Origin: Vicinamibacterales bacterium
Lineage (GTDB): Bacteria; Acidobacteriota; Vicinamibacteria; Vicinamibacterales; UBA823
DNA: 64,000 nt
NCBI GenBank assembly: GCA_965197385.1
Contig: CBDANA010000006.1
Coordinates: forward strand, 69,013-133,012
Direction of reading: 5' to 3'
In this document: positions 1 through 63,686 of the stretch, piece by piece
Numbering within the stretch: the first letter of the stretch is position 1
How the letters are laid out: every line of letters starts with the position of its first letter
The notes under the pieces: generated by a model
Seen by the model: only the letters and a program-made list of their open reading frames with translations
The model's database searches: none
Told to the model about the DNA's origin: nothing
Translations under genes and position numbers: made by a program

Positions 1-3000
1 CGCGTCCGGCGTGATCTCGCCGTCCCGCTCGAGCTGCTCGACCTCTGCGATGACCGAGTCGAGATCGACCTGAACCGTCTCCAGGCAGGCGGCGGCCAAG
101 TGCGAGCACTCGGCCTGGGCGGTCGCGTGCGAAACCTCGAGCTGGCCGACACCGCTCCGGATGTCCTCGTGGGCGCCGCGTGCCTCTCGAATAGCCACGT
201 CCTGTGCGTCCACACGCGTCCGGAGGCCCGTCAAGGCGTCGTCCGCCGCCTGCACCTCCTGGCGCAGCCGCTCGAGCTCCCCGACGCCTCGATCGAACCT
301 ACGTGCCGACTCGCCGATCTGCACCTGCAGCGACTGCCGGCGGCTGTCGGCTCGCGACAGGTCGTCGCGCCGGGTGGTCGCGCGGGTCTCCAACTCGGCC
401 GACGCCTCCGCCAGTCGCACCACTTCGGCAGCAACCGCCGTCGCGCGCTCGACCAGTCCGGCGTGCGCCGCTTTCGCATCGGCAAATCCCTCTCCCATCA
501 CCTCGATGGAGGTGCGGGCTTCGAACACCCGGCGCTGAGCCGAGGTCAGACGCTCGTCGACGGCTCGCTGCTCGCCGTCCAGTCGCGCGATCGACTCCCG
601 GGTCTCGAGATGCCGCGCCTCGGACGACGCACACTCCTCTTGGGCGCGCCGACGCTCGGCGTCGAGCAGTTCCTGTTTGCGCCGGATCAACTCGGCTTCG
701 TCCTGCAGGGTGGACAGCCGGAGGTCCAGCTCGAGTATCGCCTTGTCCCCTGCCTGCCGCTGCTCCGTCAACGTGGCCAGAGCGGTCGTGGCCCACGTGA
801 CGCGCTGCTCGATCGCGCCCAGCTGGGTTGCCGTCGCGTCGGCCTCCGCCTGCCTCGGCGCGATAGCGGCGCGCAGTTCCTTGATTTGACGTTTCGTGGC
901 GAGAATGCCGCGCGCTTCGGCCTTGCCGCCTCCGAAGACTTGATGCCGCCCACGTACGACTTCACCTGACAGCGTAGCCACCGGACCAGCAACCCCGCCA
1001 GCCGCGGACAGCGCCTGCTCCAGCGACTCGGCCACGAACGCGTGACCGATCGCTTCCCGAATCGCCGGCGCAGCCGGTCCTCTGACCTTGACCACCGACA
1101 TCAGCGGCACCAACCCGGCCGGCGGGGAACCGGCATCGACCACCGACGACGACCGACCATCAGCATTCGTTGAGCTCTCCACTACGAGAAACCCGCATCG
1201 ACCGGCGTCATGGTCGCGCACGAACTGGAGCCAGGCCGCCGCCTTCTCGTGGCTGGCCACGACAACGTGCTGCAGCAAATCGCCCAGGCAGGCTTCGACG
1301 GCACGCTCGTACCGATCGCCGACTTCCAGGTAATCCGCCACCGACCCCATGTGGCCCACGACGCCGTTCCCCTCCGCCAAGATGAGACGTGCCGCGTCGC
1401 CATAGCCGGCACGAGCGGCCTCGAGCTCTTCCAGCGACTTCGCGCGTGCCGCCATCGCCGCGAGCTCCCGCTCGTGCGTGCGAGCCGTTTTCACACAGGC
1501 CTCGCGATCGCGCTGCAGTTCGGAGAACTCGTCTCGGCGCACCGCATGGGTCCGGACCGCCTCGTCCAGCGTCTCCTGAGTTTTGGTCCGCTCCGCCATG
1601 ACGGACTGCCGGTTGGCCCGCCACTGGGTCCGGCCGGCCTCCAGGTCGGCCGTCTCGACGTCGAGCTTCGCCAGCTCCGCCATCACCCGCTCGCGCGCAC
1701 TGGCCGCGTGCTCGGCGACATGGCGCAGTGCGGTCGCGGCATTGATCGCGGCGAACACCTCGACCCGTGCCGCTTCGACGTCCCCCTCCATGCCCTCAAC
1801 ATCGTGGCGCGCCGTCGCGTACGAGGCCTCGAACGACGCCATGTGCTGCTCGGCCCGACCTCGTGCCGCCTCCGCGTCGGACGCGTTAGCGCGGCGCTGC
1901 TCCAACGCCTCCCGCGCCGGTATCCGACGCGCCGCGAGCGCCTCGAGTTCGGCCCGGATCTCCTCGAAAAGCGTGCCCAGGTCAGCGACCTGCTGACGGT
2001 CGAACTCGAGTTGATGCTGCAGCCGCCCGATCTCCAGCTCCCGGGCGTGGGCTGTGTCTCGGCTCACCGTGGCCCGCGTCTCCCCCTCCACGAGCGCGAT
2101 ACGCGACTGCGCCTGCGTCGCCTCCAACGCGGCGAGTCGAGCCGCCGCGGCGGCCTCACGGGCCCGCGCCTCGGTCAACTTCGCGAGGGCCGTCTCGATG
2201 GCACCGGATAGCCATCGGTGTCGCATCGTAAAGGACACCTTTTCCCACTGGCGTAACTCGTCACGGAGCCGCCGATACCGACGCGCCTTCGCGGCCTGAC
2301 GCTTCAGTGCGTTTCGCTGCTTGTCGACTTCGTGAACGATGTCGTCGACCCGGGTAAGGTTCTGCTCCGCGGCGTCGAGCTTCAACTCCGCGGCCCGGCG
2401 TCTCGTCTTGTACTTCGTGACGCCTGCGGCCTCCTCTATGAGCTGGCGGCGCTCGTTGGGCCGGGCACTGAGGATCTGCCCGATCTTGCCTTGCTCAATG
2501 ACGGCATAGGCCTTGATCCCGACGCCCGAGTCCATGAGCAAATCCTGCACGTCCCGCAGCCGACAGACCGCCCCGTCGATGAGATACTCGCTCTCACCGG
2601 ATCGGTAGAGGCGGCGCGAGACCTCGACGTCCCGCGTGACCGACGGCCCCGCGTCCTCCCCAGCGCCCTCGTCCGATCCCGTCGCAGGCAGCGGCTCCGG
2701 CCCAGCCACCGCCATCGGGGCCGGTCCCATCGCCGCGTGGCCGTCGTCCTTGGGGGCGTTGTTACCGGTGCCGTGACCGGTGCCGTTCGAATGGCCGTGG
2801 CCGTTGGTCGGCCCGGCCCGCCGGGTGGTCACGCCCCGGAGCAGCAGCTTGACCTCGGCCGCCGCGGTCGGCTTGCGCCCATCGCTGCCGCTGAAAATGA
2901 TATCCTCCATCCGATCGCCACGAAGGCTCTTTGCGCTCTGCTCGCCGAGTACCCACGTGATCGCGTCGACGACGTTGCTCTTGCCGCATCCATTTGGGCC

Positions 3001-3439: not shown

Positions 3440-3600
3440 CGGCCTGCTGTGAGCGCCCCGTGTGGCACCGAGACCCCGCTAACCGAAGCCGCGGTCGGCC
3501 CGGGCAAGGCGCGAGGAGGGAGCATACCGGGAGTATTTGACCCGTCGTGGGCAACGCCCAGCGCCGCCCATGGTGGGATGCATCGGCGGTCTCGGCGCTA
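3440..3600 (-). repeat. Structured intergenic repeat (SIR), copy B, reverse orientation
   Basis: The reverse complement aligns almost base for base with copy A (14532-14712). Shared blocks are GCCGATGCATCCC, ATACTCCCGGTATGCTCCCTCCTCGCGCC and AGCGGGGTCTCGGTGCCAC. It lies between the ctpA stop and the smc start. Confidence 0.85.
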
Positions 3601-3602
3601 GA

Positions 3603-5258
3603 CTAGGGAGCGGCCGGTCGGCCGCTCTGGGAGAGCACGGTCAACGCTTTGGCGTCGGCGAAGAGGCCGAGCGCGTAGATCGCCTGCGGGTCGACCTCGA
3701 GCAGGTGGCGCCGCGCATCCAAGACACCGAACAACGCCAGATCGATGTGGTATCGAATCAGGGCCCGCACGAACGCCTCATCCGCCTTCAGTTCCTCGCG
3801 ATCGACGGTCAGGCGCTCCTGTTCGAGGAAGGCCACGAAGTCGTCCAGCATGCTGTCGGTGACTTCGAAATCGCGGTCAACGGTCACGCGGTTCCGCCCT
3901 GCGCCGCTGATCCGCGTGTCGCCACGCACCGAGTACTTCTGCGCATACCGGGGAAACGTCTGCCTGGCGAACAGGCGCCGGCCGACTGGCGTGGGATCGA
4001 ATCCCTCGATCGGACCGGCCTTGAACCGATCCGGCTCGATGCCGCCTCCGCTGTACACCTGTCGTCCGGCGTCCGTGTACTTGAGGTCGGCGCCGGAGTG
4101 CTCGCGCTCGCCTTCCTGATCGCGAAGCGAATAGGTCAAGTACTCGTCGAACGTGCCGTCCCACGGCCGCTGAATGAGCCGGCCACTTGGCGTGAAGTAC
4201 CGCGCCGTGGTCAGCGCCAACCCTGCTCCCTGGCTCACCCGGTAGACCGACTGGACCAGGGCCTTGCCGAACGTCGTCTCGCCAACGATCAGTCCGCGGT
4301 CGTGATCCTGGATGGCGCCGGCCACGATCTCGGACGCGCTGGCGCTGTTTCGATTCACCAACACGACGAGCGGCAGACCGGTGAAATCACTGTCCTCGCT
4401 CGCGTGGTAGTCCTGATCCGAGTTGGGAATGCGCCCGCGCGTGTAGACGATCATGTCGCCACGCGGCAAGAACCGATCGGCCACCCGAATGGCCTGATCC
4501 AGCGGCCCGCCCGGATTGTCACGCAGGTCCAGCAGCACCTGCTGCATGCCCTGCTCGGCCAACTCGTTGAGCGCGAGGCCCAGGTCGTGATCCGTCGTCT
4601 CTGAAAAATCGCGCAACCGGACGTATCCCGTCGACGCGTTGACCATCAACGCGCCGAGAATCGTTGGGATGTTGATCTCGCCTCGCGTGACCTCCAGCGG
4701 AATCAGCTCGTCGTAGCCCTGCCGCCTGATCGCGATGCGGACCGCAGATCCCCTGGGACCGCGCAGCCGCCGGACCGCCTGATCGCTCGTCCAGCCCTGC
4801 GCCGACTCCCCTTCGATCTCGGCGATGACGTCACCGCGCCGGATCCCCTTCAGGTAGGCTGGCGAGCCGTCGAACAGCGCGATGACCGTGATGTCGCCGT
4901 TCTGCACCTGAATGGTGATCCCGAGGCCGTAGTAGCGCCCTTCCTGGCGTTCCCGCATCTGCGAGTACGAACGCGGGTCCATGAAGCTGGAGTGCGGGTC
5001 CAGCGTCTGCAGCATCCCGCTGATCGCCGCATACACCAGCCGATCCGTGTCGACCTCATCGACGTAGTTGGACTCGATGGCCGCGAGGGCGGTCGAGAAC
5101 ACCTTGTATCGCTGCGCGACACGATCCTGAGTCGCCAGCGCGCGCCCGCCGAACAGGCCGCCCACCAACGCCGACACGACCACCACCGTTACCGCCGCCG
5201 ACAGGGACTGAACACCCCGCATGAACGGCATCGTACCAGATAAGCCCCTATGTCGCAA
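3603..5258 (-). CDS. ctpA: Carboxyl-terminal processing (S41, tail-specific) protease with PDZ domain
   Basis: 551-aa ORF with an N-terminal hydrophobic segment, a PDZ-like GDVIAEIEG region, and the NRNSASASEIVAGAIQD...TFGKALVQ Ser/Lys catalytic region typical of S41. Confidence 0.85.
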   Translation of the reverse strand: MRHRGLSGTMPFMRGVQSLSAAVTVVVVSALVGGLFGGRALATQDRVAQRYKVFSTALAAIESNYVDEVDTDRLVYAAISGMLQTLDPHSSFMDPRSYSQMRERQEGRYYGLGITIQVQNGDITVIALFDGSPAYLKGIRRGDVIAEIEGESAQGWTSDQAVRRLRGPRGSAVRIAIRRQGYDELIPLEVTRGEINIPTILGALMVNASTGYVRLRDFSETTDHDLGLALNELAEQGMQQVLLDLRDNPGGPLDQAIRVADRFLPRGDMIVYTRGRIPNSDQDYHASEDSDFTGLPLVVLVNRNSASASEIVAGAIQDHDRGLIVGETTFGKALVQSVYRVSQGAGLALTTARYFTPSGRLIQRPWDGTFDEYLTYSLRDQEGEREHSGADLKYTDAGRQVYSGGGIEPDRFKAGPIEGFDPTPVGRRLFARQTFPRYAQKYSVRGDTRISGAGRNRVTVDRDFEVTDSMLDDFVAFLEQERLTVDREELKADEAFVRALIRYHIDLALFGVLDARRHLLEVDPQAIYALGLFADAKALTVLSQSGRPAAP

Positions 5259-5833: not shown

Positions 5834-6655
5834 ATGGCGCCGGAATCCGGTCCAGACTCGCATCCTGTCCCCGTTCAACCGCAGCCGCTTGGCGAACCCC
5901 AGTCCGGTGAGGACGACGACGCCTCCGGCGGCCGGATGTCGTTCCTCGAGCATCTGGACGAACTAAGAAAGCGTCTCGTCCAAGCCGCCTGTGGTATTCT
6001 CGGCGGATTCATCGTCGCCTTCGCCTTCATCAAGTACATCTTCGAGTTCATCATGGTTCCGCTGCAGCAAGTGCTGCCGGAGGGAGGCCGCCTCGTTTAT
6101 ACGGAACCAGCCGAAGCCTTCTTCCTGTACATGAAGATGGCCGCGCTGGTCGGGCTGCTGCTGGCAATGCCCATCCTCTTCACGCAGGTCTGGATGTTCA
6201 TCGCACCAGGCCTGTACCCGCACGAGAAAAAGTTTGCGATTCCCTTCGTCGCGCTCACGTCGCTGTTCTTCCTCGGCGGCGCGCTGTTCTCGCATTACGC
6301 GGTCTTCCCGCTCGCCTGGCGCTTCTTCGCCGGGTTCACCACGGATTACATGGAGTTCCTGCCGCGCATCGCGCCGGTCTTCTCCCTGTACGTGAAGATG
6401 CTGCTGGCGATGGGCGTCGTGTTTCAACTGCCCACGCTGGTGTTCTTTCTGGCCAAGCTGGGACTGGTCACGCCAAAGTTCCTCATCAAGAACATCAAGT
6501 ACGCCATCCTCGCGATCTTCATCATCGCGGCCGTCTTGACCCCCTCCGCCGATCCGGTGACGCAGACCGCGATGGCGGTACCGATGATGGTGTTGTACGG
6601 CATCAGCATCGGCATCGCCTGGATGTTCCAGAAGCGTCGCTCGGACGACGACTAG
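5834..6655 (+). CDS. tatC: Twin-arginine translocase subunit TatC
   Basis: 273-aa polytopic ORF with MSFLEHLDELRKRL and six hydrophobic segments. An alternative start is the internal ATG at 5936. Confidence 0.9.
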   Translation: MAPESGPDSHPVPVQPQPLGEPQSGEDDDASGGRMSFLEHLDELRKRLVQAACGILGGFIVAFAFIKYIFEFIMVPLQQVLPEGGRLVYTEPAEAFFLYMKMAALVGLLLAMPILFTQVWMFIAPGLYPHEKKFAIPFVALTSLFFLGGALFSHYAVFPLAWRFFAGFTTDYMEFLPRIAPVFSLYVKMLLAMGVVFQLPTLVFFLAKLGLVTPKFLIKNIKYAILAIFIIAAVLTPSADPVTQTAMAVPMMVLYGISIGIAWMFQKRRSDDD

Positions 6656-6710
6656 CAGCCCGTGATCCGGGTGTGTCGGTGGAGCGATCGTGAGACGAAA
6701 GCTGCGGCAG
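6653..6710 (+). repeat. SIR arm-only fragment abutting the IS30 element
   Basis: TAGCAGCCCGTGATCCGGG starts on the tatC stop codon and matches the 5' arm consensus T(A/T)(G/A)CA(G/A)CCCGTGG of SIR copies D, A and E. It is interrupted by the IS end at about 6711. Confidence 0.5.
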
Positions 6711-7906
6711 GTTCAATCGGTCAATGCAACAGCGGTCGCAGTGTATCAGCTGGCGTGGCATATCCCAGCGTCTTGCGTGGACGTGAGTTGAGACGTTGCG
6801 CGATGGTGTTGAGATCAGCCTGCGTGTAGGTCGAGAGGTTTGTTCCTTTGGGGAAGTATTGCCGCAACAAGCCGTTGGTGTTCTCGTTCGTACCTCGCTG
6901 CCATGGACTCTGCGGGTCGCAGAAGTACACCTTCACGTTCGTGGCGACCGTGAAGCGCTTGTGCGAGGCGAATTCGGTCCCACGGTCCCACGTCAGAGAC
7001 GCCATCAACCCCTTCGGGAGCGTGCGAACGGCGTTGGCCAGCGCCCGCACGACATTGGCGGTGTCTTTGCCAGCCAGACGAATCAAGAGCAGGAAGCGCG
7101 AGTGGCGCTCGACGAGCGTGGCGATGTGTGAGTTGCGAGCCCCGGTCAGTAAGTCGCCTTCCCAGTGGCCGGGCACGGCCCGATCCGCTGCCTCCGCCGG
7201 ACGTTCTCGAATCGAGACGGCGTCGATGATCTGACCACGGCACTGGCCCGCCGTGCTGGCGTGCTTGGACCGACGCATCCGTCGCCGACGGCGAAGGTGG
7301 GCGTTCAGGGCTTTCTTCAGCACCCCGCGACTCTGCACGAAGAGACTGAGATAGATCGTCTCGTGCGACACGTGCAAACAAGGATCCTTCGGAAAGGTCC
7401 GTTTGAGCCACCCGGCGATCTGCTGTGGGGACCAGTCTGCCGCCAGCTTCTCAGTCACCAGGGCACGGAGCAACGGCGAGAGGGCGAGCCGACAGGGTTT
7501 CGGACGCCGAGTTCGGTCCCAGGCACGCGCGTCGGCAACGGACGCACGGTACTGCCGTCGGCCACCGTTCCGTCGCACCTCCCGGCTGATCGTCGATGGC
7601 GCTCGACTCAGGCGCACGGAGTAGCCCCGGGCCAAGCCCCTGGAGATTTCCTCCCGCTCCGTCAGGGTGAGCGAGCGTCGCGACCGGGTCCGTGACGGCG
7701 GCGGGATACCCCCACGGGCTGACACGACGTGGTGAACTGCTCCCGGGATCCGACCGAGTGCCCGACCGATGTCGCTGAGCGACTCACCTCGCTTCCACCG
7801 CTTCCACAGCTCCACCTTCTCTCTTGCTGACATCCGTGGACGACGAACGCGACCCATGATCCCTCCTTGCTGTGATCATTCATCGCGTTGCATCGACCCT
7901 TTGAAC
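6711..7906 (-). mobile_element. IS30-family insertion sequence (~1.2 kb)
   Basis: A single DDE transposase ORF is flanked by imperfect 20-bp inverted repeats: GTTCAATCGGTCAATGCAAC (6711-6730) versus the reverse complement of 7887-7906 (GTTCAAAGGGTCGATGCAAC), 17/20 identical. No clear direct repeat was seen. Confidence 0.7.
6721..7857 (-). CDS. IS30-family transposase
   Basis: 378-aa ORF with an N-terminal HTH (ESLSDIGRALGRIPGAVHHV), an HWEGDL motif and a DDE-type C-terminal core typical of IS30 transposases. The frame is intact. Confidence 0.85.
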   Translation of the reverse strand: MGRVRRPRMSAREKVELWKRWKRGESLSDIGRALGRIPGAVHHVVSARGGIPPPSRTRSRRSLTLTEREEISRGLARGYSVRLSRAPSTISREVRRNGGRRQYRASVADARAWDRTRRPKPCRLALSPLLRALVTEKLAADWSPQQIAGWLKRTFPKDPCLHVSHETIYLSLFVQSRGVLKKALNAHLRRRRRMRRSKHASTAGQCRGQIIDAVSIRERPAEAADRAVPGHWEGDLLTGARNSHIATLVERHSRFLLLIRLAGKDTANVVRALANAVRTLPKGLMASLTWDRGTEFASHKRFTVATNVKVYFCDPQSPWQRGTNENTNGLLRQYFPKGTNLSTYTQADLNTIAQRLNSRPRKTLGYATPADTLRPLLH

Positions 7907-8034
7907 TCACCGGGTCTTTTCGTTGACTTCACAGGGGTGCGTACGATTTACTTGACGGAGTGGGCAATTTTTTGCAGCGAGCCGTCGACGGAGGACTGAC
8001 CGCGAGGAACCGACTCTGGGGTCTCGCGAACTGG

Positions 8035-8192
8035 CAGCCCGCGGTGAACGTCCGGCGGCATTCGGCCGGCGATGCATCCCCGCTGGCTGCGTTGCGTCTC
8101 GTTCAAATATTCCAAATATTCTCACTCGTCGCGCCTTGCCAGCGGGGCGCCTCGTCACCCTCGGTGCCACGCCGGACGTTCACCACGAGCTG
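8035..8192 (+). repeat. SIR copy E, forward orientation
   Basis: Near-identical to copy D over GGCATTCGGCCGGCGATGCATCCCCGCTGGCTGCGTTGCGTCTCGTT.AAATATTCC..ATATTCTC.CTCGTCGCGCCTTGC. The terminal inverted repeat is GTGAACGTCCGGC / GCCGGACGTTCAC. Confidence 0.85.
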
Positions 8193-9840
8193 CTGGGCGA
8201 CGGTCATCATGATGGTCGCGTTCGCGTCGCCCGTGTCAGCGCAGACGAACGACGTCGACGACACGGCTACCCGCCCCGCCACGACGACGTTTCTCGGGGA
8301 CACCGGCCTCTGGTTCGTCCCGACGGGCGAGATCCTCCCTGATGGCAAGGTATCCGTCAGCGCCTACCGGGCCAACTTCGATCGCGAGCAGGGCTTCACC
8401 GACATCTCCCACCACGCGCTGACGTTCGGCGTCGGCGTGCGCAATCGTCTCGAGCTCTTCGGCTCGTTCCGGGTCAACATGCGGATCGACCGCGACGTCC
8501 GTCCGCAATTTCGGCCCGACGTGCCAGGTGCCGGTGGCGTCGGCAACGCGACCCCCTTCATGCGCACCGGGTTCAGCAACAGCGTTGGCGACCTGCTGAT
8601 CGGCACGAAGATCAACCTGTCGTCGGAGTACCGCCAGCAGGCGGCCGCGTTCGCGGTGCGAGCAATCGCGCAGCTGCCCACCGGCGACGACGCGGCCGGC
8701 GCGGGAACCGGAAAGGCAAGCTTCTTCGTCGACGCCATCATCAGCAAGCACGTCAACGAGCGCATCGAGGTGTCCGGCTTTGGCGGGTTCGCGGTGCGTG
8801 GTGACCCAGACGGCATCGACCTCTCGAACGGCCTTCGGTGGGGTGTCGGGGCCGGATTTCCTACGTCGAAGACAATCCGGCTGTTCACCGAACTGCACGG
8901 TGAAGCCTTGTTCGACGATGTCACGCTCGACGCGCCGCTCACGGCGGAAGACGGCAGCCTGTCGCCGCTCGTGTCGCCGCTTCGAAGCCCGCTGGACGCG
9001 GCCGTCGGCGTGCTGTGGCAGGGGTCGAACGGCTTCTTCGCGGGTGCCGGCCTGAACGTCGCCCTCCGGCATGGCTCACGCAGCGACTTTGGGCAGAGTT
9101 CGCCGGGCGGCGACCGTCTGGGCCTCCAGGTCAGGCTCGGATTCCACCCCGGTGTACGCGTCTACGTGCCACCGCCGCCGCCACCACCGCCGCCACCGCC
9201 GCCACCGCCGGCTCCGCCGGCGAACCAGCCGCCGACCGTGACGGCGCGCTGTGTCCCCTGCACCGTCAATGTCGGCGAACGTTCGACGGTGAGCGCCCAG
9301 GCGCAGGACCCGGACGGCGATGCCTTGACCTACCGGTGGAGCGCCGCGGCTGGGAGCTTCGCCGACCCGACCGCGTCCGAGACAGCTTGGACGGCACCCG
9401 ACGACGAAGGGCCGGTTCCGGTGACGGTCTCGGTGAGCGACGGCCGAGGCGGCGAGGCCTCGGATTCGGTGACCATCCAGGTGGTCCGGCCGACGCTGCG
9501 CGAGTTCGTGTTCGAGGACGTTCACTTCGACTTCGATCGCTACACGCTCCGCCCGAGCGCCATTCGGGTGCTCGACGAGGCGATCGCAGCGCTGGAGGAA
9601 AGCCCCACGCTGCAGATCGAAATCGCCGGCCACACCTGCAACATCGGCACGGCCGAGTACAACATCGCCCTCGGGGATCGCCGGGCCCAGGCCGTGCGCG
9701 CGTACCTGGTCGACCGCGGCATCGCCGCCGGACGGCTACGGACGGTGAGCTTCGGCGAGGAACAGCCGCAGCACGACAACACGCGTGAAGAAACGCGTCG
9801 GCTGAACCGCCGGGCCGCGATGGTCGTCCGGGTGCAGTAG
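8164..9840 (+). CDS. OmpA-family outer-membrane protein (beta-barrel, poly-Pro linker, Ig/PKD-like module, OmpA C-terminal domain)
   Basis: The C-terminus, FDFDRYTLRPSAIRVLDEAI...IEIAGHTCNIGTAEYNIALGDRRAQAVRAYL...NRRAAMVV, is an OmpA peptidoglycan-binding domain. A GTG at 8164 gives the signal peptide MPRRTFTTSCWATVIMMVAFASPVSA-QT. The track ORF starts at 7960 but runs through the repeat. Confidence 0.8.
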   Translation: MPRRTFTTSCWATVIMMVAFASPVSAQTNDVDDTATRPATTTFLGDTGLWFVPTGEILPDGKVSVSAYRANFDREQGFTDISHHALTFGVGVRNRLELFGSFRVNMRIDRDVRPQFRPDVPGAGGVGNATPFMRTGFSNSVGDLLIGTKINLSSEYRQQAAAFAVRAIAQLPTGDDAAGAGTGKASFFVDAIISKHVNERIEVSGFGGFAVRGDPDGIDLSNGLRWGVGAGFPTSKTIRLFTELHGEALFDDVTLDAPLTAEDGSLSPLVSPLRSPLDAAVGVLWQGSNGFFAGAGLNVALRHGSRSDFGQSSPGGDRLGLQVRLGFHPGVRVYVPPPPPPPPPPPPPPAPPANQPPTVTARCVPCTVNVGERSTVSAQAQDPDGDALTYRWSAAAGSFADPTASETAWTAPDDEGPVPVTVSVSDGRGGEASDSVTIQVVRPTLREFVFEDVHFDFDRYTLRPSAIRVLDEAIAALEESPTLQIEIAGHTCNIGTAEYNIALGDRRAQAVRAYLVDRGIAAGRLRTVSFGEEQPQHDNTREETRRLNRRAAMVVRVQ

Positions 9841-12927: not shown

Positions 12928-13093
12928 CCTAACCCCAGAACTCACTTGTGTTGCCACGTCTGGCTTGTTCTGCCCGGCGAGGGCGGCGTTGCTCCTCAGT
13001 CATTTGGGCCCACCAAACTCCTTCGTCGCGCCTTGCCCCCACCGTTCAGCCCGGTGCCAGCCATTGTCAACACAAGTGAGTTCTGAGGTTAGG
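12928..13093 (+). repeat. SIR copy F (divergent outer stem, same core)
   Basis: 26-bp terminal inverted repeat CCTAACCCCAGAACTCACTTGTGTTG (12928-12953) / CAACACAAGTGAGTTCTGAGGTTAGG (13068-13093), with one mismatch. The core shares GGCGTTGC, TTCGTCGCGCCTTGCC, GTTCAGC and GGTGCCA with copies C, D and E. It fills the convergent aroB/regulator gap. Confidence 0.75.
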
Positions 13094-14512: not shown

Positions 14513-14531
14513 GGCGTCGCTGGAGGTTTAA

Positions 14532-14712
14532 CAGCCCGTGGTGAAAGTCCTGCTGCATTCGACCGCCGATGCATCCCGCCATGGGCGGCGCCGGGCATTG
14601 TCCACGATGGGTCACATACTCCCGGTATGCTCCCTCCTCGCGCCTACCTCGGGGCGAGCGCGGCTTTGGTCAGCGGGGTCTCGGTGCCACGCTGGACTTT
14701 CGCTACGGGCTG
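14532..14712 (+). repeat. SIR copy A, forward orientation
   Basis: Terminal inverted repeat CAGCCCGTGGTGAAAGTCC / GGACTTTCGCTACGGGCTG. The core is near-identical to the reverse complement of copy B. It overlaps the last about 23 codons of the upstream ORF and ends 20 nt from the regulator start. Confidence 0.85.
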
Positions 14713-15333
14713 TTGACGCGTCCGTGTCGACGAACGGCGCGCCGACCGATACCGCAACCAGCCGGGTGGCACGCCGGCGCGGCGAGCTTCTTCCTCGATG
14801 TCGGCGATGGCCTGGGTCTGCCAGTTGATCTCCCGCTGGACCCGCTCCATCTCGGCCATCGCGTCGCGCCGCAGCGCAGCGATTTCCTCGCGTTGGTACG
14901 GGTCGTCGCGCGCCGTGAAATCGGCCCAGAGACCGTCGACCCGATTCTGCAACGCCTCCAGAAACAGCTCATTGCGGGACAGTGCCTCGCGCGCGGCCGT
15001 GATGCGCGCACGCCAGAACTCTTCATCCTGGGGTGGCTCCTCCGGCTCTGCATCTTCACCGGGTGCCCCGGATGTGCCGGCCACCGCGCCAGGCACCGTC
15101 TCCGCCTCGATTCCGGCAGGGATCGGCGGCACGGTCGTCGTCAAGTTGCCGCTGCCGCGCAGATCGGCATTGGTATACACCTTCGACGGCGTCTCGACCG
15201 CCTGGCGGCGGACCTCATCCCGACGCGCAATCTCGGCCAGCGACTGTGCGGACGCCGATGACGCTGATGGCGCGACCATCAGGCCACATAGCGCGACGGC
15301 GAACAGGCGGACGATCGACCAGCCACTCATCAT
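14644..15333 (-). CDS. Hypothetical secreted protein with a coiled-coil C-terminal half
   Basis: Signal peptide MMSGWSIVRLFAVALCGLMVAPSASSASAQS starting at 15333. I recognise no family. The C-terminal tail is encoded by SIR copy A. Confidence 0.55.
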   Translation of the reverse strand: MMSGWSIVRLFAVALCGLMVAPSASSASAQSLAEIARRDEVRRQAVETPSKVYTNADLRGSGNLTTTVPPIPAGIEAETVPGAVAGTSGAPGEDAEPEEPPQDEEFWRARITAAREALSRNELFLEALQNRVDGLWADFTARDDPYQREEIAALRRDAMAEMERVQREINWQTQAIADIEEEARRAGVPPGWLRYRSARRSSTRTRQQPVAKVQRGTETPLTKAALAPR

Positions 15334-24009: not shown

Positions 24010-24082
24010 CGTTAAGTCACACGGGAAAAATCAGTTGTTCGACCACAGAGGACGCCACTGGGGAGATCCTTGAATGTAGTCA

Positions 24083-25110
24083 AGCTGGTTATCCAGCTGA
24101 CTCAGGTGACCCCTACATCTTGTGGTCTCGCCGAGGGCCTCGCCCGACGTCTTTGACCATGGCCGTGTACGGCACAGGGGCGACCTGCACAGCCTGCTGG
24201 GCCAAGCGGTAGAACAGCATCCCGCGGTGCCGTGAGCGCCGGCGGTTGAACCGGAAGGTGAACTCGTCGAGGTAGTAGTCGAGATGTGCGGGGCTGACGG
24301 CACCCTGATGGGTGCCCAACAGCCACCGCTTGAGCAGGGACGTGACGAGATGAACGCGCGGCAGCAGTTGGTTCGCCGGCTCGGGATGCTCGGAGAGGAC
24401 GTAATCCGGTGCCGGTAGCCGTGCGCCTGCACGCGCTCGTAGCCCAACCAGCCATCCGTGTGCACCTGACTGCCGGGCTCGACGACGGCGTCGATGAAGC
24501 CCTGGAGGCTATTCGCCGATGCGTCCGGCACCCGGCGCAGCCGAATCCGGCCCAGCCGCTGGCCGACGTCCTCGGCAGCGACGGCAATCAGGGCCTTTTT
24601 CTTGGCCCCGCGGCCACTGACGCCATCCTCGACGCCCCCGACGAACGTCTCGTCCACTTCGACGTAGCCGGCGAGCCGGTCCCGGCTTGGCCGCACCATC
24701 GCCCGTCGCAGCTTGTGCAGCCAGGTCCAGGCCGTTTGGTAGCTGCCCAAGCCCAGCACCTGCTGCAGCGTCAGCGCGCTCGTCCCGGTCTTCTGACTGG
24801 TGACGGCCCACATCGCCCGAAACCAGACGGTGAGCGGGCTGCGGGTGTCCTGGAAGATCGTCCCAGCCGTGACGGACGTCTGGCGGCCACAGGCGGCACA
24901 CTCGAACAGCCGGCGGCGCACTGGCCACGCCTTCTGGTGGGCGCAGGTCGGACAGCGGAATCCGTCTGGCCAGCGCAGCCGAACCAGGTAGGCCCAACAC
25001 GCCTCCTCCGACCCGAATCGGGCGTCGAACTCGCCCTGATTCCTGGGGAAATCCGACACGAGGCCGTACGCTACATGTTGGGGTTACCTGAGTCAAATGG
25101 ATAACCAGCT
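24083..25110 (-). mobile_element. IS1595-family insertion sequence (~1.03 kb)
   Basis: 36-bp inverted repeats, 24083-24118 versus the reverse complement of 25075-25110, are 32/36 identical (AGCTGGTTATCCA...GACTCAGGT.ACCCC.ACAT). GTAGTC is present on both flanks (24076-24081 and 25111-25116). Confidence 0.75.
24113..25059 (-). pseudogene. IS1595-family (ISXO2-like) transposase, frameshifted
   Basis: The N-terminal Zn-ribbon (CPTCAHQKAW...CAACGRQ) and DDE region run up to GYERVQAHGYRHRIT. The continuation VLSEHPEPANQLLPRVHLVTSLLKRWLLGTHQGAVSPAHLDYYLDEFTFRFNRR is in another frame (ORF 24113-24319). One base is missing at about 24400. Confidence 0.8.
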
Positions 25111-25339
25111 GTAGTCGATTGACACTTTTTGTCAATTGACGCCTCGGCACGGGTACCGTCCCGCACGACCGACCGGACACGTGCCCCTCGAACCCGTGGT
25201 GACAGTCCGGCGAGGCGATGAGGCCCCTGGATCTTCTCGGAAGGGCAATGACATCACTGCAGCGCCGGAGCTGTGGAGCGCCGCAAGTCCGAAGGCGATA
25301 GTGCCAAATCCCGAGCAGCGCCGTGCTTTCGGCAGCCAG

Positions 25340-25465
25340 TGGTGAGCCCCGCGTCGCACCGAGACCGTCGAGGCGCCCGCCCCGCAAGGCGCGAGGAGGG
25401 AAAATACCGGAAGTATTCGACCGACGAGCAACGCCGCGGGGCGGGATGCATCGGCGGTCGCCGGG
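25340..25465 (-). repeat. SIR copy C, reverse orientation (core; an arm-like ACCCGTGGTGACAGTCCGGCG also occurs at 25193-25213)
   Basis: The reverse complement carries GCCGATGCATCCC, the hairpin AATAC-TTCCG-GTATT (25403-25417), CTCCTCGCGCCTTGC and GGTCTCGGTGCGAC. Confidence 0.7.
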
Positions 25466-26384: not shown

Positions 26385-28481
26385 ATGAAGGCCTACGACA
26401 CGCCAAGCATCCGGAACGTTGCGATCGTCGGGCACAGTGGCTCCGGCAAGACGCAGCTGACCTCGGCCCTGCTCTTTGACGCGGGGATGGTCAACCGCTT
26501 GGGCATGGTCGACGACGGCACGACGGTGACCGATTTCGACGAAGAGGCGATCGCCCGCAAGCACACGCTGACGGCCAGTGTTGCCTACGCCGAATGGAAC
26601 AAGACGAAAATCAATCTCATCGACACGCCAGGCATGGCCAACTTTCTGAGCGAGGCGAGAGCGGCGCTCGGCGTGAGCGACGTCGCGGTCGTCATCGTTG
26701 ATGGCGTGGCCGGCGTCGAGGTCCAGACCGAGAAGACGTGGGCCACGGCACAGGAACTCGGCATCCCGAGGCTGATCGTGCTCAACCGGCTGGACCGGGA
26801 GCGAGCCAGCCTCGACCGCTCGCTCGAATCGCTGCGTGAAGTGCTCGGCCGGAGCATCGTCCCGATTCAGATTCCAATCGGTGAGGAGAAGGCGTTTCGT
26901 GGTGTCGTCGATCTGGTGGCCATGCAGGCGCTGATGTTCGAGCCTGGCGGTGACGGCAAGCCGTCGGTGGCCGAGATCCCGGCGGACATGGCCGACGCCG
27001 CCAAGGCGGCGCGAGACGCCCTGACCGAGATGGTCGCCGAGGCGGATGACAATCTCATGGAGAAGTTCTTCGAGGCCGGCACGCTGACCCAGGAAGAATT
27101 GAAGGCCGGCCTCCGCACCGCCACGCTGAGCGGTCAGGTCGCGCCGCTCCTGTGCACGTCCGCCACGCAGAACGTGGGGATCGTGCCGCTGCTGGACGCG
27201 CTGATCACCTACACGCCGTCGCCCGCGGACCGCCCGTTTCCAGGCGTGGACGCCAACGGCAACCCGGTCGACTGTGCGGCCTCGAGCGACGATCCGCCGG
27301 CCGCCTTCGTCTGGAAGACAATCGCCGATCCGTTCGCCGGACGCATTACGATGTTCCGCGTCGTCTCAGGCGTTCTCGCGGCCGACGCGGCGATTCACAA
27401 TCTAACGAAGGACTCGGGTGAACGGTGCGGGACTCTACTGTTGCTGCAGGGCAAGACCCAGGTAGCCATCAATGAGGTCCGCGCCGGGGACCTCGGGGCG
27501 GTCGCCAAGCTGAAGGACACCCAGACGGGTGACACGCTCGCCGACAAGGCGTGCGGGGTGACCTTTCCCCCGTTTACGTTTCCCGAGCCGGTGCTCGCCT
27601 ACGCGATCGAGCCGAAGAGTCGCGGCGATGAGGAAAAAATCAGCGCGTCCCTGGCGCGCCTCCGAGAAGAGGATTCGACCATTCGCTACGCCCGCGATCC
27701 CCAGACGTCGGAATTGTTGCTCTCCGGTCAGGGCCAGGTGCACATCGAGGTGACCGTGGCGAAGCTCAAGAAGCGCTTCGGCGTGGAGGTGAACTTGAAG
27801 CTTCCGCGGATCGCCTACCGCGAGACGATTCAGGCCTCGACGGAAGCGCACGGCCGCCACAAGAAGCAAACAGGCGGCCACGGCCAGTTCGGTGACTGCA
27901 AGATCAAGATGGAACCGCTGCCGCGCGGCGGCGACTTCGAATTCGTCAACGCGATCTTCGGCGGCGCCATTCCCAGGGGATTCGTGCCCGCGATCGAGAA
28001 GGGAATTCAGGATTCCAGGATGCGCGGATATCTGGCAGGCTACCCCATCGTGGACTTCAGGGTGACCGTCATCGATGGGTCGTTCCACCCCGTCGATTCC
28101 AACGAGCTCTCGTTCAAGATGGCGGGGTCGCTGGCGTTCAAGGACGCAATGACGCGGGCCAGACCCACGCTGCTCGAGCCCGTCATGGACGTGGAAATCC
28201 ACGCGCCGAGCGAGTTCGCTGGCGACCTCATGGGTGACCTGAACGGCCGCCGCGGCCGAATCGGCGGGATGGAACCGAGCAGTGGGACGACGGCCATCAA
28301 GGCCCAGGTGCCGATGGCCGAGATGCTCACCTACGAGCAGCAGCTAACCTCGGCGACCGGGGGTCGCGGGTCATACCACATGGAATTTTCACACTACGAG
28401 GAAGTCCCGGCTCACTTGCACGCCAAGATTATTTCGGCCGCCAAGGCCGAGCGCGGCGAGTCGGAGTCCGTGAAGGGCTAG
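26385..28481 (+). CDS. Elongation factor G paralog (EF-G2-like translational GTPase)
   Basis: MKAYDTPSIRNVAIVGHSGSGKTQLTSALLF (G1), DTPG, NRLD and full EF-G domain order, 698 aa. GAGGAGGA lies 7 nt upstream of the ATG at 26385. It is distinct from the canonical fusA at 46127. Confidence 0.85.
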   Translation: MKAYDTPSIRNVAIVGHSGSGKTQLTSALLFDAGMVNRLGMVDDGTTVTDFDEEAIARKHTLTASVAYAEWNKTKINLIDTPGMANFLSEARAALGVSDVAVVIVDGVAGVEVQTEKTWATAQELGIPRLIVLNRLDRERASLDRSLESLREVLGRSIVPIQIPIGEEKAFRGVVDLVAMQALMFEPGGDGKPSVAEIPADMADAAKAARDALTEMVAEADDNLMEKFFEAGTLTQEELKAGLRTATLSGQVAPLLCTSATQNVGIVPLLDALITYTPSPADRPFPGVDANGNPVDCAASSDDPPAAFVWKTIADPFAGRITMFRVVSGVLAADAAIHNLTKDSGERCGTLLLLQGKTQVAINEVRAGDLGAVAKLKDTQTGDTLADKACGVTFPPFTFPEPVLAYAIEPKSRGDEEKISASLARLREEDSTIRYARDPQTSELLLSGQGQVHIEVTVAKLKKRFGVEVNLKLPRIAYRETIQASTEAHGRHKKQTGGHGQFGDCKIKMEPLPRGGDFEFVNAIFGGAIPRGFVPAIEKGIQDSRMRGYLAGYPIVDFRVTVIDGSFHPVDSNELSFKMAGSLAFKDAMTRARPTLLEPVMDVEIHAPSEFAGDLMGDLNGRRGRIGGMEPSSGTTAIKAQVPMAEMLTYEQQLTSATGGRGSYHMEFSHYEEVPAHLHAKIISAAKAERGESESVKG

Positions 28482-28654
28482 CAACCCGTGGCGAAAGTCC
28501 GGCTGCATTCGGCCGGCGATGCATCCCCGCTGGCTGCGTTGCGTCTCGTTTAAATATTCCCGATATTCTCGCTCGTCGCGCCTTGCTCCGGCGCTCCGCG
28601 TCTTCGGTTCAGCGGTGTCCTCGGTGCCACGCCGGACTTTCGCCACGGGTGCTA
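28479..28654 (+). repeat. SIR copy D, forward orientation, between the convergent EF-G2 and rplQ genes
   Basis: 25-nt terminal arms CTAGCAACCCGTGGCGAAAGTCCGG / CCGGACTTTCGCCACGGGTGCTAG, with one bulge. The stop codons of both flanking genes lie in the CTAG ends. The core is near-identical to copy E. Confidence 0.9.
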
Positions 28655-29224
28655 GGACGACTTCTTCGCCTTCGACGTCGCCCGCTTCTTCTTCTTCGGC
28701 GTGGCCTCAGCCTCGGGGACCTCGGCAGCCTTCAGGCTGCGCATGCGTCGCGCCGCGGCTCGCAGCCGCCCGCCGACCCCCTTGGACTTGCTGGCCGGCG
28801 CGCTCTCGACACGCTCGTCCGCGTCACCGGCGTCGGCCGAATATTCGCTGCCGACCAATTCGACCTGTGCCATCTCGGCGCTGTCTCCGCGCCGCGCGCC
28901 AAGCCGTAACAACCGCGTGTAGCCGCCGGGCCGCGCCTCGAACCTCGGCGCAATCCCGTCGAACAACTTGCTGACCACGTCTTGATCGGCGATGTCACGC
29001 CGCACCAGCCGCCGGGCATGGACGGCACGGATGGCATCGCCGCTGGCGATCCCGCGTTTGGCAATCGTGATCAGGCGCTCGACGAACGGATGCAACTCCT
29101 TGGCGCGCGGCACCGTCGTGCGAATGCGCTCGTGGCGCAACAGCGCCTGCGCCAGATTCCGGAGCATCGCCATGCGGTGCTCACTCACCCGTCCCAGCTT
29201 TCGATGTGCTACTCGATGACGCAT
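28652..29224 (-). CDS. rplQ: 50S ribosomal protein L17 (with ~70-aa Ala/Lys-rich C-terminal tail)
   Basis: MRHRVAHRKLGRVSEHRMAMLRNLAQALLRHERIRTTVPRAKEL. Confidence 0.95.
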   Translation of the reverse strand: MRHRVAHRKLGRVSEHRMAMLRNLAQALLRHERIRTTVPRAKELHPFVERLITIAKRGIASGDAIRAVHARRLVRRDIADQDVVSKLFDGIAPRFEARPGGYTRLLRLGARRGDSAEMAQVELVGSEYSADAGDADERVESAPASKSKGVGGRLRAAARRMRSLKAAEVPEAEATPKKKKRATSKAKKSS

Positions 29225-32286: not shown

Positions 32287-32336
32287 CGCAACCGCCCTCG
32301 CTGCAACGCCAGACGTTCACCACGGGCGGCTAGCCA

Positions 32337-36539: not shown

Positions 36540-36586
36540 CTTAGCAGCCCGTAGCGGAAGGCCGGTGGCATTCGGCCACTGCTAAG
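36540..36586. repeat. Mini SIR (arm-only hairpin) between rplR and rpsE
   Basis: CTTAGCAGCCCGTAGCGGAAGGCCGGTGGCATTCGGCCACTGCTAAG. The first about 35 nt match the 5' arm of copy D (AGCAACCCGTGGCGAAAGTCCGGCTGCATTCGGCC). It is closed by CTTAGCAG/CTGCTAAG. Confidence 0.7.
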
Positions 36587-37960: not shown

Positions 37961-38022
37961 TTAGCAGCCCGTGGCGACACCGTCCCCAGGGGTCGGAGCT
38001 TCGTCGCCGGTCTCGCCGCGGC
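37961..38022. repeat. Mini SIR-arm hairpin between rpsZ and rpsH
   Basis: TTAGCAGCCCGTGGCGACACCGTCCCCAGGGGTCGGAGCTTCGTCGCCGG. It starts with the SIR 5' arm consensus and forms a GGCGAC...GTCGCC hairpin. Confidence 0.55.
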
Positions 38023-38026
38023 GGGG

Positions 38027-38212
38027 TTACCAGCTGCTCTTGATCACGCCGACGATATCGCCCTGCAACGCCAGCGCCCGGAAACACAAGCGACACAGCG
38101 CAAACTTGCGCATGTAGGCGCGCGGGCGACCGCAGCGCCAGCACCGGTTCCTCCGGCGCACTTTAAACTTCGGCGTCTTGCGCGCCTTGGCTCTCATCGC
38201 GGTAGTGGCCAT
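38027..38212 (-). CDS. rpsZ: 30S ribosomal protein S14 type Z (zinc-binding)
   Basis: [61 protein letters not shown]. Confidence 0.9.
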
Positions 38213-44851: not shown

Positions 44852-44871
44852 CTCGTCTTCCTTGGTCTCGC

Positions 44872-46059
<1,188 letters not shown>

Positions 46060-61576: not shown

Positions 61577-61652
61577 TGGCAGGCCAGGAGGGACTTGAAC
61601 CCCCAACCCCCGGTTTTGGAGACCGGTGCTCTGCCAGTTGAGCTACTGGCCT
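61577..61652 (-). tRNA. tRNA-Trp (anticodon CCA)
   Basis: Minus strand AGGCCAGTAGCTCAACTGGCAGAGCACCGGTCTCCAAAACCGGGGGTTGGGGGTTCAAGTCCCTCCTGGCCTGCCA. It forms a cloverleaf with a 7-bp acceptor stem and encoded CCA. Confidence 0.9.
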
Positions 61653-61666
61653 GCAACTCAGTCGAC

Positions 61667-61816
61667 CTACTTCGTCTCCCGATGTGTCGTGTGCGTCCGG
61701 CACCATCGGCAGAACTTCTTCATCTCCAGACGCCCTGAGGTCGTCCTCTTGTTCTTCGTCGTGCTGTAGTTACGCCGCTTGCACTCGGTGCAGGCCAGCG
61801 AAACGATGGCGCGCAT
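61667..61816 (-). CDS. rpmG: 50S ribosomal protein L33
   Basis: Hand translation gives [49 protein letters not shown]-stop. It is too short for the ORF track. Confidence 0.9.
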
Positions 61817-61851
61817 GACTGAATCCCCGTACCCGCCCGACTAGCGTCCGC

Positions 61852-63038
<1,187 letters not shown>

Positions 63039-63108
63039 GTCGTCCCTCTCCTCCACGCCTCAACCGACCCGGCGCCGCCGCGATCGGCGCGGCGCCGATC
63101 CCAAATGC

Positions 63109-63184
<76 letters not shown>

Positions 63185-63230
63185 CACGAATTCGCCGCCG
63201 ACGCCGGCCGTGGCACAGCGGCCACCGCCT

Positions 63231-63305
63231 TGGAGCGGGAGACGGGGATCGAACCCGCGACCAACAGCTTGGAAGGCTGTGACTCTACCACTGAGTTACT
63301 CCCGC
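63231..63305 (-). tRNA. tRNA-Gly (anticodon UCC)
   Basis: Minus strand GCGGGAGTAACTCAGTGGTAGAGTCACAGCCTTCCAAGCTGTTGGTCGCGGGTTCGATCCCCGTCTCCCGCTCCA. Confidence 0.9.
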
Positions 63306-63323
63306 GAACTGTGCTCCCGTTCC

Positions 63324-63347
63324 CATCCGTCATCCGTCATCCGTCAG
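63324..63347 (-). repeat. Heptamer tandem repeat (plus strand CATCCGT x3 + CAG; minus strand TGACGGA x3)
   Basis: Read directly. It lies in the spacer between tRNA-Tyr and tRNA-Gly. Confidence 0.9.
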
Positions 63348-63384
63348 AGGGTGCGACTGTCCGACGGCCCAGGACGGCTCACCT

Positions 63385-63471
63385 TGGTGGCGAGGGGAGG
63401 ATTCGAACCTCCGAAGCCGCTGGGGCGACAGATTTACAGTCTGTTGCGTTTGACCGCTCCGCAACCTCGCC
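63385..63471 (-). tRNA. tRNA-Tyr (anticodon GUA, long variable arm)
   Basis: Minus strand GGCGAGGTTGCGGAGCGGTCAAACGCAACAGACTGTAAATCTGTCGCCCCAGCGGCTTCGGAGGTTCGAATCCTCCCCTCGCCACCA. Confidence 0.9.
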
Positions 63472-63608
63472 AAACTCTCCGTCGTCGCTCGGCGAACCGC
63501 CCGCTACCCCAGCCACCGGCGGGCACGCGGGCTCGGGTAGTGTTCGCTAAACGTCATGACTCGAAAATGTGTGATGCGGTGGAAAGCGCTGCCTACCGTC
63601 TGAGCCCT

Positions 63609-63686
63609 TGGGAGCTGGCGAAGGGATTTGAACCCCCGACCGGCTGATTACAAATCAGCTGCTCTACCGGACTGAGCTACGCCAGC
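63609..63686 (-). tRNA. tRNA-Thr (anticodon UGU)
   Basis: Minus strand GCTGGCGTAGCTCAGTCCGGTAGAGCAGCTGATTTGTAATCAGCCGGTCGGGGGTTCAAATCCCTTCGCCAGCTCCA. The ends are good to within 1-2 nt. Confidence 0.85.

Follow-up and report, generated by a model that had tools for sequence, protein, structure and literature searches.

A 64,000-nt stretch of a Vicinamibacterales genome (contig CBDANA010000006.1, positions 69,013 to 133,012; hereafter, the window) contains several related stretches of intergenic DNA, one of which lies at positions 3,440 to 3,600. The question raised by this locus is what kind of element such a repeat represents. The first-pass annotation, made from the letters of the window, described a family of structured intergenic repeats and left it to later work to decide among a discrete RNA, a terminator and a feature of the DNA only. 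The analyses presented here reveal that the repeat family is non-coding mobile DNA, i.e. a MITE, of ~160 bp, which folds end-to-end as one long hairpin. No earlier description of it was found in the searched literature or in Rfam, and it is a new family within the described class of bacterial MITEs (Correia/ERIC/REPIN-like). That the kind of element was already described, in the form of the bacterial MITEs and REPINs with their long stem-loops, had been missed in the first-pass annotation (PMC2229807, PMC3116915).

The canonical unit is 158-160 bp in length, with ~22-bp terminal inverted repeats, and is flanked by cTA on the left and TAg on the right. A covariance model (CM) was constructed from 70 full copies, of which the window contributed two and other genomes 68. 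All six long copies reported previously are matched by this model, copy B only weakly, and they are therefore real. These copies, together with smaller remnants and other features discussed below, are listed in Table 1; the identities of neighbouring genes in the window were obtained from Pfam.

Table 1. Features of the repeat family and its surroundings. Positions are those of the window, except in the last row. CM, covariance model; bit scores and match coordinates are given where available.
Feature	Position	Strand	Description	Model match	Flanks	Inverted arms	Neighbourhood
Copy B	3440..3596	-	5′-truncated, A-like variant	nhmmer 3442-3591, E = 4e-12; CM 33 bits (core)			Directly after the TAG stop of an S41 protease gene (3603-5258, minus strand)
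Left-end stub of the repeat	6655		11 nt				Adjoined by the IS30-family IS
IS30-family IS	6703-7908	Transposase on minus strand	HTH_38 + rve domains			~21-bp inverted repeats, GGTTCAATCGGTCAATGCAAC / GTTGCATCGACCCTTTGAACT	
Copy E	8035..8192	+	Complete, canonical, 158 bp, CAGCCC...GAGCTG	CM 173 bits, 8034-8193(+)	Direct CTGG repeats (8031-8034 and 8193-8196)	24 nt, 92% complementary	
Copy F	12933..13088	+	Complete; subfamily with the same core and a different terminal inverted repeat (CCCCAGAACTCACTTGTGTTG...)	CM 69 bits, 12938-13083(+)	CTAA (12929-12932), TTAG (13089-13092)	29 nt, 93% complementary	Directly 3′ of the TAA stop of a 3-dehydroquinate synthase gene
Copy A	14532..14712	+	Complete 181-bp variant with altered inner stems	CM 69 bits, 14533-14711(+)	TTAA (14528-14531), TTGA (14713-14716)	24 nt, 88% complementary	
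IS1595-family transposase gene	24031-25059	-	Zinc ribbon + ISXO2-like DDE domain				~270 bp from copy C
Copy C	25333..25460	-	5′-truncated, model positions 30-160	CM 100 bits (30-129), 25361-25460(-); nhmmer 25333-25460		None found on searching; left terminal repeat missing	29 nt downstream of an arginine decarboxylase gene
Copy D	28482..28651	+	Complete, with a 12-nt internal insertion	CM 119 bits, 28481-28652(+)	CTAG (28478-28481 and 28652-28655)	20 nt, 100% complementary	Flanks supply two stops: the TAG of an EF-G-like gene (ends 28481) and that of rplQ (minus strand, starts 28652)
Right-arm fragment	32295..32331	+	Ends in ...CACCACGGGCGGC followed by TAG; 86% identity to the right arm of copy E				
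Internally deleted remnant	36545..36581	+	37 nt; left 31 nt (matching the left arm) fused to the final 6 nt		TTAG and CTAA		Inside a ribosomal-protein operon
Degenerate, internally deleted copy	37965..38036	+	72 nt	Terminal-repeat match			Between ribosomal-protein genes
Diverged relative (locus L119)	2468-2626		On Desulfosarcina sp. BuS5 plasmid NZ_CP087953.1, in AT-rich DNA (46% GC)		TAA on both sides (could be a 3-bp duplication)	~40-nt inverted ends	Between hypothetical genes near parA

The ordered sequence blocks shared by the copies occur far more frequently than expected by chance; GGTCTCGGTGCCAC, for example, is matched five times with up to two mismatches, against 1.3 matches expected. 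Alignment bears out the absence of the GCCGATGCATCCC block from copy F, and the outer stems are indeed interchangeable, as the core of that copy is the common one but the terminal repeat enclosing it, of 26-29 nt, is not. The statement that every copy is closed by long terminal inverted repeats applies to copies E, D, A and F, the arms of which are 20-29 nt in length, but not to copies B and C, from which the left arm is missing. Fragments described as consisting of arms only do exist, but they proved to be the 37-nt internally deleted remnant, the 72-nt degenerate copy and the 11-nt stub. There is no ORF conserved across the copies: several frames are free of stops at once, and the lengths of the copies differ by non-multiples of 3.

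Covariation was assessed by applying a hand-written structure to a MAFFT alignment that was not fitted to any structure, with 500 shuffles for comparison. Paired cells amounted to 89.4%, as against 79.0% in the shuffles, and double changes were found at 38 of the 55 pairs. The number of cells with double changes was 392 as compared with 137 in the shuffles, none of the 500 shuffles reaching the observed value, and the compensatory substitutions proposed earlier are accordingly real. When the pairing register was slid, only ~40% of cells remained paired. The variants of the 5-bp apical hairpin are as first described (CATAC/GTATG in A, AATAC/GTATT in C, AATAT/ATATT in D and E and TTTGG/CCAAA in F). 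That hairpin does covary, but covariation is not restricted to it; the whole element covaries, including the terminal stem, the two middle stems and the inner stem. The terminal columns are nearly invariant across the 70 copies. The F-type copies retain the core and possess a terminal stem of entirely different sequence that is nevertheless still paired, and in the copy from the Desulfosarcina plasmid an equally long stem with perfect Watson-Crick pairing (ACGAAAGCGTAG/CTACGCTTTCG) takes the place of the mismatched inner stem. For copy E, a rod is predicted on both strands, with energies of -102.9 kcal/mol (reverse) and -91.6 kcal/mol (forward) and z of ~-8.6 for each.

Species-representative genomes were scanned with a two-block core pattern, and at least 116 loci were obtained. 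Among the matches listed, all of which derive from other genomes, 102 of 116 loci carry the element, so that the family extends beyond the window, as the first-pass annotation had supposed; the other 14 are chance pattern matches. Both matches on viral contigs likewise proved to be due to chance. The length of the element is strikingly uniform: among the matches listed, 50 of the 77 full copies are exactly 160 nt and 68 of the 77 lie between 156 and 163 nt. The hosts among these matches are mostly Vicinamibacteria, with other Acidobacteriota represented by Thermoanaerobaculia (including Ca. Multivorans) and Holophagales; Longimicrobiales (Gemmatimonadota) and Gammaproteobacteria (Ca. Rariloculus and Ca. 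Azophilus) are found as well. At least three phyla are thus represented among the soil and sediment bacteria that carry the element. Mis-binning cannot explain this distribution across phyla, since the element is carried on Mb-scale contigs or closed chromosomes. Copies within one genome resemble each other, and each genome therefore has its own subfamily. One of the loci (L003) is 77% identical to the window over 1.3 kb of a gene. In the sampled loci, 16 further copies were found in 747 kb, excluding the copy by which each locus was retrieved, a density of ~1/47 kb; the window is denser in copies than this.

Variants of the element were also encountered outside the window. Three more F-type copies are present on metagenome contigs (L122, L124 and L132). 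Copies of 199-201 nt (L066, 1303-1501; L078, 2756-2954; L099, 5807-6007) contain a nested insert of ~39 nt at the same internal position. This insert includes a small perfect hairpin (CCCCAACGCGGCTGCCGCGTTGGGG), and it may represent a second, smaller mobile hairpin or a subfamily variant. The copies from Longimicrobiales/Gemmatimonadetes (L030, L036, L074 and L096) are 247-248 nt in length, owing to an AT-rich insert of ~88 nt in the left half. As this insert is common to four copies from three assemblies, it marks a phylum-specific long subfamily.

Target duplications and filled and empty sites identify the repeat, in the first instance, as mobile DNA, and not as the RNA or terminator considered in the first-pass annotation. 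In two related Thermoanaerobaculia genomes, reciprocal filled and empty orthologous sites were observed. The copy at 4970-5129 of the first (L024) is absent from the orthologous site in the second (L104), the filled site being 162 nt longer, a difference that fits 160 + 2 or 158 + 4. Conversely, the copy at 6209-6369 of the second genome is absent from the orthologous site in the first, where the site is too diverged for the boundaries to be read. The occurrence of such sites in related genomes indicates that the element is mobile DNA. A further copy, in L064, appears to be split, with its left 122 nt (1331-1453) and its last ~17 nt (3905-3928) situated 2.4 kb apart; either two copies may have been rearranged with each other, or one copy may have received an insertion and suffered a deletion as well.

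The flanks of 82 full copies, among the matches listed, were compared. The left flank reads CTA in 41 of the 82, TTA in nine and CTG in nine; the right flank reads TAG in 40, TAA in 10 and CAG in eight. TA is present in the left flank of 57/82 copies and in the right flank of 53/82, and the left 4-mer is CTAG in 37/82, with TTAG, CTAA and TTAA also occurring. The first base of the element correlates with the base that follows the right-hand TA (7/8 vs 10/74, Fisher p = 3.6e-5), and its last base correlates with the base that precedes the left-hand TA (4/7 vs 9/75, Fisher p = 0.011). Rare, non-palindromic 4-mers (TTAC, CTGA, GTAG and CTAA) were also found as direct flanking repeats. These data favour a 4-bp duplication, N-T-A-N, with the consensus Py-T-A-Pu. 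A 2-bp duplication of TA inside CTAG, as for IS630, is less probable. The flanks of the F-type copies (CTAA...TTAG), which look inverted, fit the 2-bp TA better, and direct flanking 4-mers outnumber inverted ones by only 12 to 9. A 6-bp duplication, NCTAGN, of the IS481 kind was dismissed on visual inspection, which showed no repetition of the outer bases of the flanks. In 25 of the 82 copies, the stop codon of a neighbouring gene lies within the flank, copy D being the clearest case.

The mismatches within the stems are not distributed equally between the two strands. In the variable stems, on the strand given in the first-pass annotation (here, forward), transition mismatches comprise 207 A·C and 49 G·U. 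An A·C mismatch on one strand is a G·U pair on the other. For mismatches common to at least four copies the figures for this strand are 17 A·C and 2 G·U, and for private mismatches, found in one or two copies, they are 31 A·C and 24 G·U. As the shared mismatches are biased and the private ones symmetric, the bias belongs to changes fixed in propagating lineages, whereas resident copies decay symmetrically. Conserved pyrimidine·pyrimidine mismatches of the forward strand become three tandem 5′-GA/3′-AG pairs on the reverse strand (59-65 of 70 copies), and one internal loop becomes a helix with a G·U pair on that strand in 65 of 70 copies. Fold energies agree with this pattern. The energy of the alignment fold is -57.2 kcal/mol for the reverse strand as against -30.6 kcal/mol for the forward strand, and the mean per-copy values are -98.4 and -88.6, respectively, the reverse strand being the better in 66 of 69 canonical copies. 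The same holds for 13 of 18 divergent copies, among which are the Desulfosarcina copy and each of the four F-type copies. Folded as DNA, the reverse strand yields -55.2 kcal/mol (z = -7.0). On the evidence of the mismatch pattern, the G·A pairs and the fold energies, then, the strand that is constrained to fold is the reverse complement of the one originally presented.

These results suggest that spread of the element requires one of its strands to fold in a single-stranded copy, which may be ssDNA or RNA. The pattern is compatible with either, since DNA and RNA alike tolerate G·T/G·U and sheared G·A pairs. A strand-specific constraint that is visible only in lineage-level changes is not predicted by known models.

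Given its mobility, target-site signature, terminal repeats, full-length covariation and strand bias, the family is probably best read as a MITE that is mobilized in trans, by a DDE transposase whose target is centred on CTAG. The mobilizing enzyme would be of the IS5 type (4-bp duplication) by preference, an IS630 type (2-bp TA) being less likely. On this reading, the element would be a non-autonomous DNA transposon of 158-160 bp that encodes nothing, and its ~22-bp terminal inverted repeats would serve as binding sites for a transposase made elsewhere in the genome. Integration would take place at Py-T-A-Pu, mostly CTAG, with duplication of the target; in these GC-rich genomes such sites would often be stop codons, and the duplication would restore a stop on both sides. 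Each genome would have amplified a subfamily of its own, and the family would have crossed phylum boundaries. Several observations sit uneasily with a DDE-mobilized MITE: the sampled DNA yielded no transposase whose ends match, the ends of IS5 (GGAAGGTGCGAA) are unlike those of the element, the F-type flanks look inverted and not direct, with the count of direct over inverted 4-mers given above being a narrow one, and a hairpin constraint on one strand is not predicted by a cut-and-paste DDE mechanism. A variant which we consider tentative and on balance unlikely is that the target is duplicated DDE-style, yet propagation requires one specific strand to adopt the rod, as ssDNA or as RNA. If true, this would be an unrecognised route of transposition, e.g. 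one in which a transposase or helper recognises a hairpin that is strand-specific and contains tandem G·A pairs. The border that separates TIR/TSD transposons of the classical type from ssDNA elements dependent on a hairpin, such as IS200/IS605, REPINs and integron attC sites, would then be blurred. In either case we infer that continued propagation would depend on formation of the rod in a single-stranded copy of one particular strand.

Other explanations of the element must also be weighed. An ssDNA hairpin element of the REPIN or IS200/IS605 type, in which an HUH (Y1) transposase excises the folded strand and reinserts it beside a short target, would account for a constraint that acts on propagating lineages only, for covariation over the whole length and for F-type copies that keep the stem while changing its sequence; the apparent TA duplication would then be, in part, element sequence. 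We regard it as rather improbable. The statistics on the flanks point to genuine duplication of the target bases, the terminal repeats show strong sequence conservation from phylum to phylum and no bias with respect to local GC skew, an indicator of the replication strand, was seen (21 vs 19, a weak test). No Y1 (RAYT) gene was found among the neighbours scanned in 8-kb windows around copies, a small sampling. The ends of the element, which read CTAG followed by CAGCCC, lack the GTAG/CGTC head of REPs (PMC3733652). Less probable still, by a small degree, is a structured RNA module that serves the host (an mRNA 3′-end stabilizer, an RNase target or a terminator) and travels on a mobile element, its fold being kept for the benefit of the host. 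Such a module would be in keeping with the great stability of the predicted rod (about -100 kcal/mol, z -8.6), with the many copies at gene 3′ ends and between convergent genes, with G·U and tandem G·A pairs, which are typical RNA features, and with the reported effects of Correia and ERIC transcripts on mRNA processing and stability (PMC2229807).

A host-serving RNA is opposed, however, by the symmetry of the private mismatches (31 vs 24), from which resident copies seem to decay neutrally, and by the truncated and internally deleted copies common in the window. Signals expected of such an RNA were likewise not found: neither a sigma-70-like promoter at copies E and D nor, around them, terminator-like sites (a GC-rich hairpin with a U-tract) could be detected. 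A gathering-threshold Rfam scan of the window gave only five tRNAs, in agreement with the earlier failure to match the repeat to a named family, and permissive scans of copies A and E yielded noise only (E > 4). Both orientations relative to neighbouring genes do occur, as noted at the outset of this work: 26 copies are tandem and co-directional, 17 anti-directional, 16 between convergent and 11 between divergent genes, with no strong or significant orientation bias (26 vs 17) according to a crude, home-made codon-usage gene caller that misses some genes. Propagation via an RNA copy, retro-element-like or RNA-guided, in which the reverse-strand RNA must fold for copying or integration, would explain why the strand-specific G·U pattern is confined to lineage-level changes. 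It is nonetheless highly improbable, as terminal inverted repeats and target duplication are hallmarks of DNA transposons, copies E and D contain no detectable internal promoter, no reverse transcriptase or guide-RNA nuclease was found near the scanned copies, and an element of 160 nt is far smaller than group II introns.

The DDE-mobilized MITE has close counterparts among known systems. Correia (NEMIS), ERIC (IRU) and RUP are bacterial MITEs of 100-200 bp, non-coding and intergenic, with TIRs, terminal 5′-TA-3′ and target duplication, and their 5′ ends pair with their 3′ ends into long stem-loops containing A-G type mispairs (PMC2229807). The present element shares all of these properties. 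It is unlike them in being unrelated in sequence, in its GC-rich environmental hosts (Acidobacteriota, Gemmatimonadota and Gammaproteobacteria), in a length that is almost fixed at 160 nt across phyla and in its whole-rod covariation with a clear bias towards one strand. RUP, moreover, is linked to IS630-Spn1, whereas no partner transposase was found for the present element in the sampled DNA. REPINs, which are REP doublets that form hairpins and are moved by RAYT transposases, are similarly short, non-autonomous and intergenic. Compensatory changes across their hairpins are frequent, and every genome harbours a population of its own (PMC3116915). They differ in length (about 70-110 nt, against 160 nt) and in their long, vertically inherited lineages, whereas the present element occurs in several phyla, has sequence-conserved terminal repeats and shows evidence of target duplication.

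With regard to the target, the four nucleotides that IS5 duplicates are Py-T-A-Pu, CTAG being the commonest version (PMC5493358). The flanks CTAG, CTAA, TTAG and TTAA, together with statistics that favour a 4-bp duplication, resemble the IS5 group, but the ends of E. coli IS5 (GGAAGGTGCGAA...), the one IS5-family member compared, differ from those of the element (CAGCCCGTGGTGAAAG), and the sampled DNA yielded no IS5-family transposase. The PIF/Harbinger-derived Tourist MITEs of eukaryotes are probable relatives of the IS5 group. If the duplication were 2 bp, the ends of the element would read TA followed by (G/A)CAG..., resembling the CAG-type ends of Tc1 and mariner. IS630 prefers TA inside 5′-CTAG-3′ and duplicates the TA (PMC2170065, with reference to Tenzen & Ohtsubo 1991). 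The flanks of the element fit such a site, but their correlations favour 4 bp over 2 bp, and the sampled DNA yielded no transposase of the IS630 type.

A full-length partner, with the same ends and a transposase gene, was sought in ~0.9 Mb of sampled DNA and in the F-type metagenome matches, and none was found; the metagenome scan with the F-type terminal repeat returned three F-type MITEs and no long partner. A tblastn search with the E. coli IS5 transposase gave nothing in the sampled DNA. Candidates within the window were examined individually. The IS30-family transposase (6721-7857, minus strand) is associated with different inverted repeats, and the IS1595-family transposase belongs to another family, with matching ends not found. 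The fragments at 36.5 and 38.0 kb bracket ribosomal-protein genes and no transposase, so that an autonomous parent between them was rejected. The 2.4-kb insert in the split copy of L064 encodes a metallo-beta-lactamase-fold protein, which is not a transposase. Genes between or beside the copies in multi-copy loci specify ordinary enzymes, and the recurrent neighbour proteins, considered as possible mobility genes, belong to expanded secreted or paralogous families.

Vicinamibacteria and other bacteria of soil and sediment are abundant yet have received little study; a repeat that litters their genomes is now named and modelled, and the covariance model can be used to mask or trace it. That it is present in three phyla is a mark of gene flow among them. 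By landing on CTAG stop codons and rebuilding them, a transposon could settle harmlessly at the ends of genes, including sites between ribosomal-protein genes. The constraint on one strand, in lineage-level changes only, is a testable hint of a single-stranded intermediate in the spread of a TIR/TSD element.

Some additional features of the sampled DNA deserve mention. A secreted protein family of ~330-370 aa, which has the conserved motifs ...WEGDTLVVET... and, C-terminally, YEYACHEGN but matches nothing in Pfam, is encoded in at least 10 repeat-bearing loci, often right beside a copy (L073, 990-2087; L081, 5857-6903 and 7117-7998; L080, three genes; and L051, L044, L088, L071, L006 and L015). 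It is probably an expanded paralogue family of Vicinamibacteria. In the window, a proline-rich stretch of an OmpA-family gene (7960-9840) is encoded by a CCGCCGCCACC-type repeat at 9160-9233. Two stretches ~17 kb apart, at 44869-45549 and 61849-62528, contain 300-nt blocks that are 100% identical (44869-45168 = 61849-62148; 45250-45549 = 62229-62528), and they may represent the usual pair of elongation-factor Tu genes; the second adjoins a cluster of five tRNA genes (61580-63686, minus strand).
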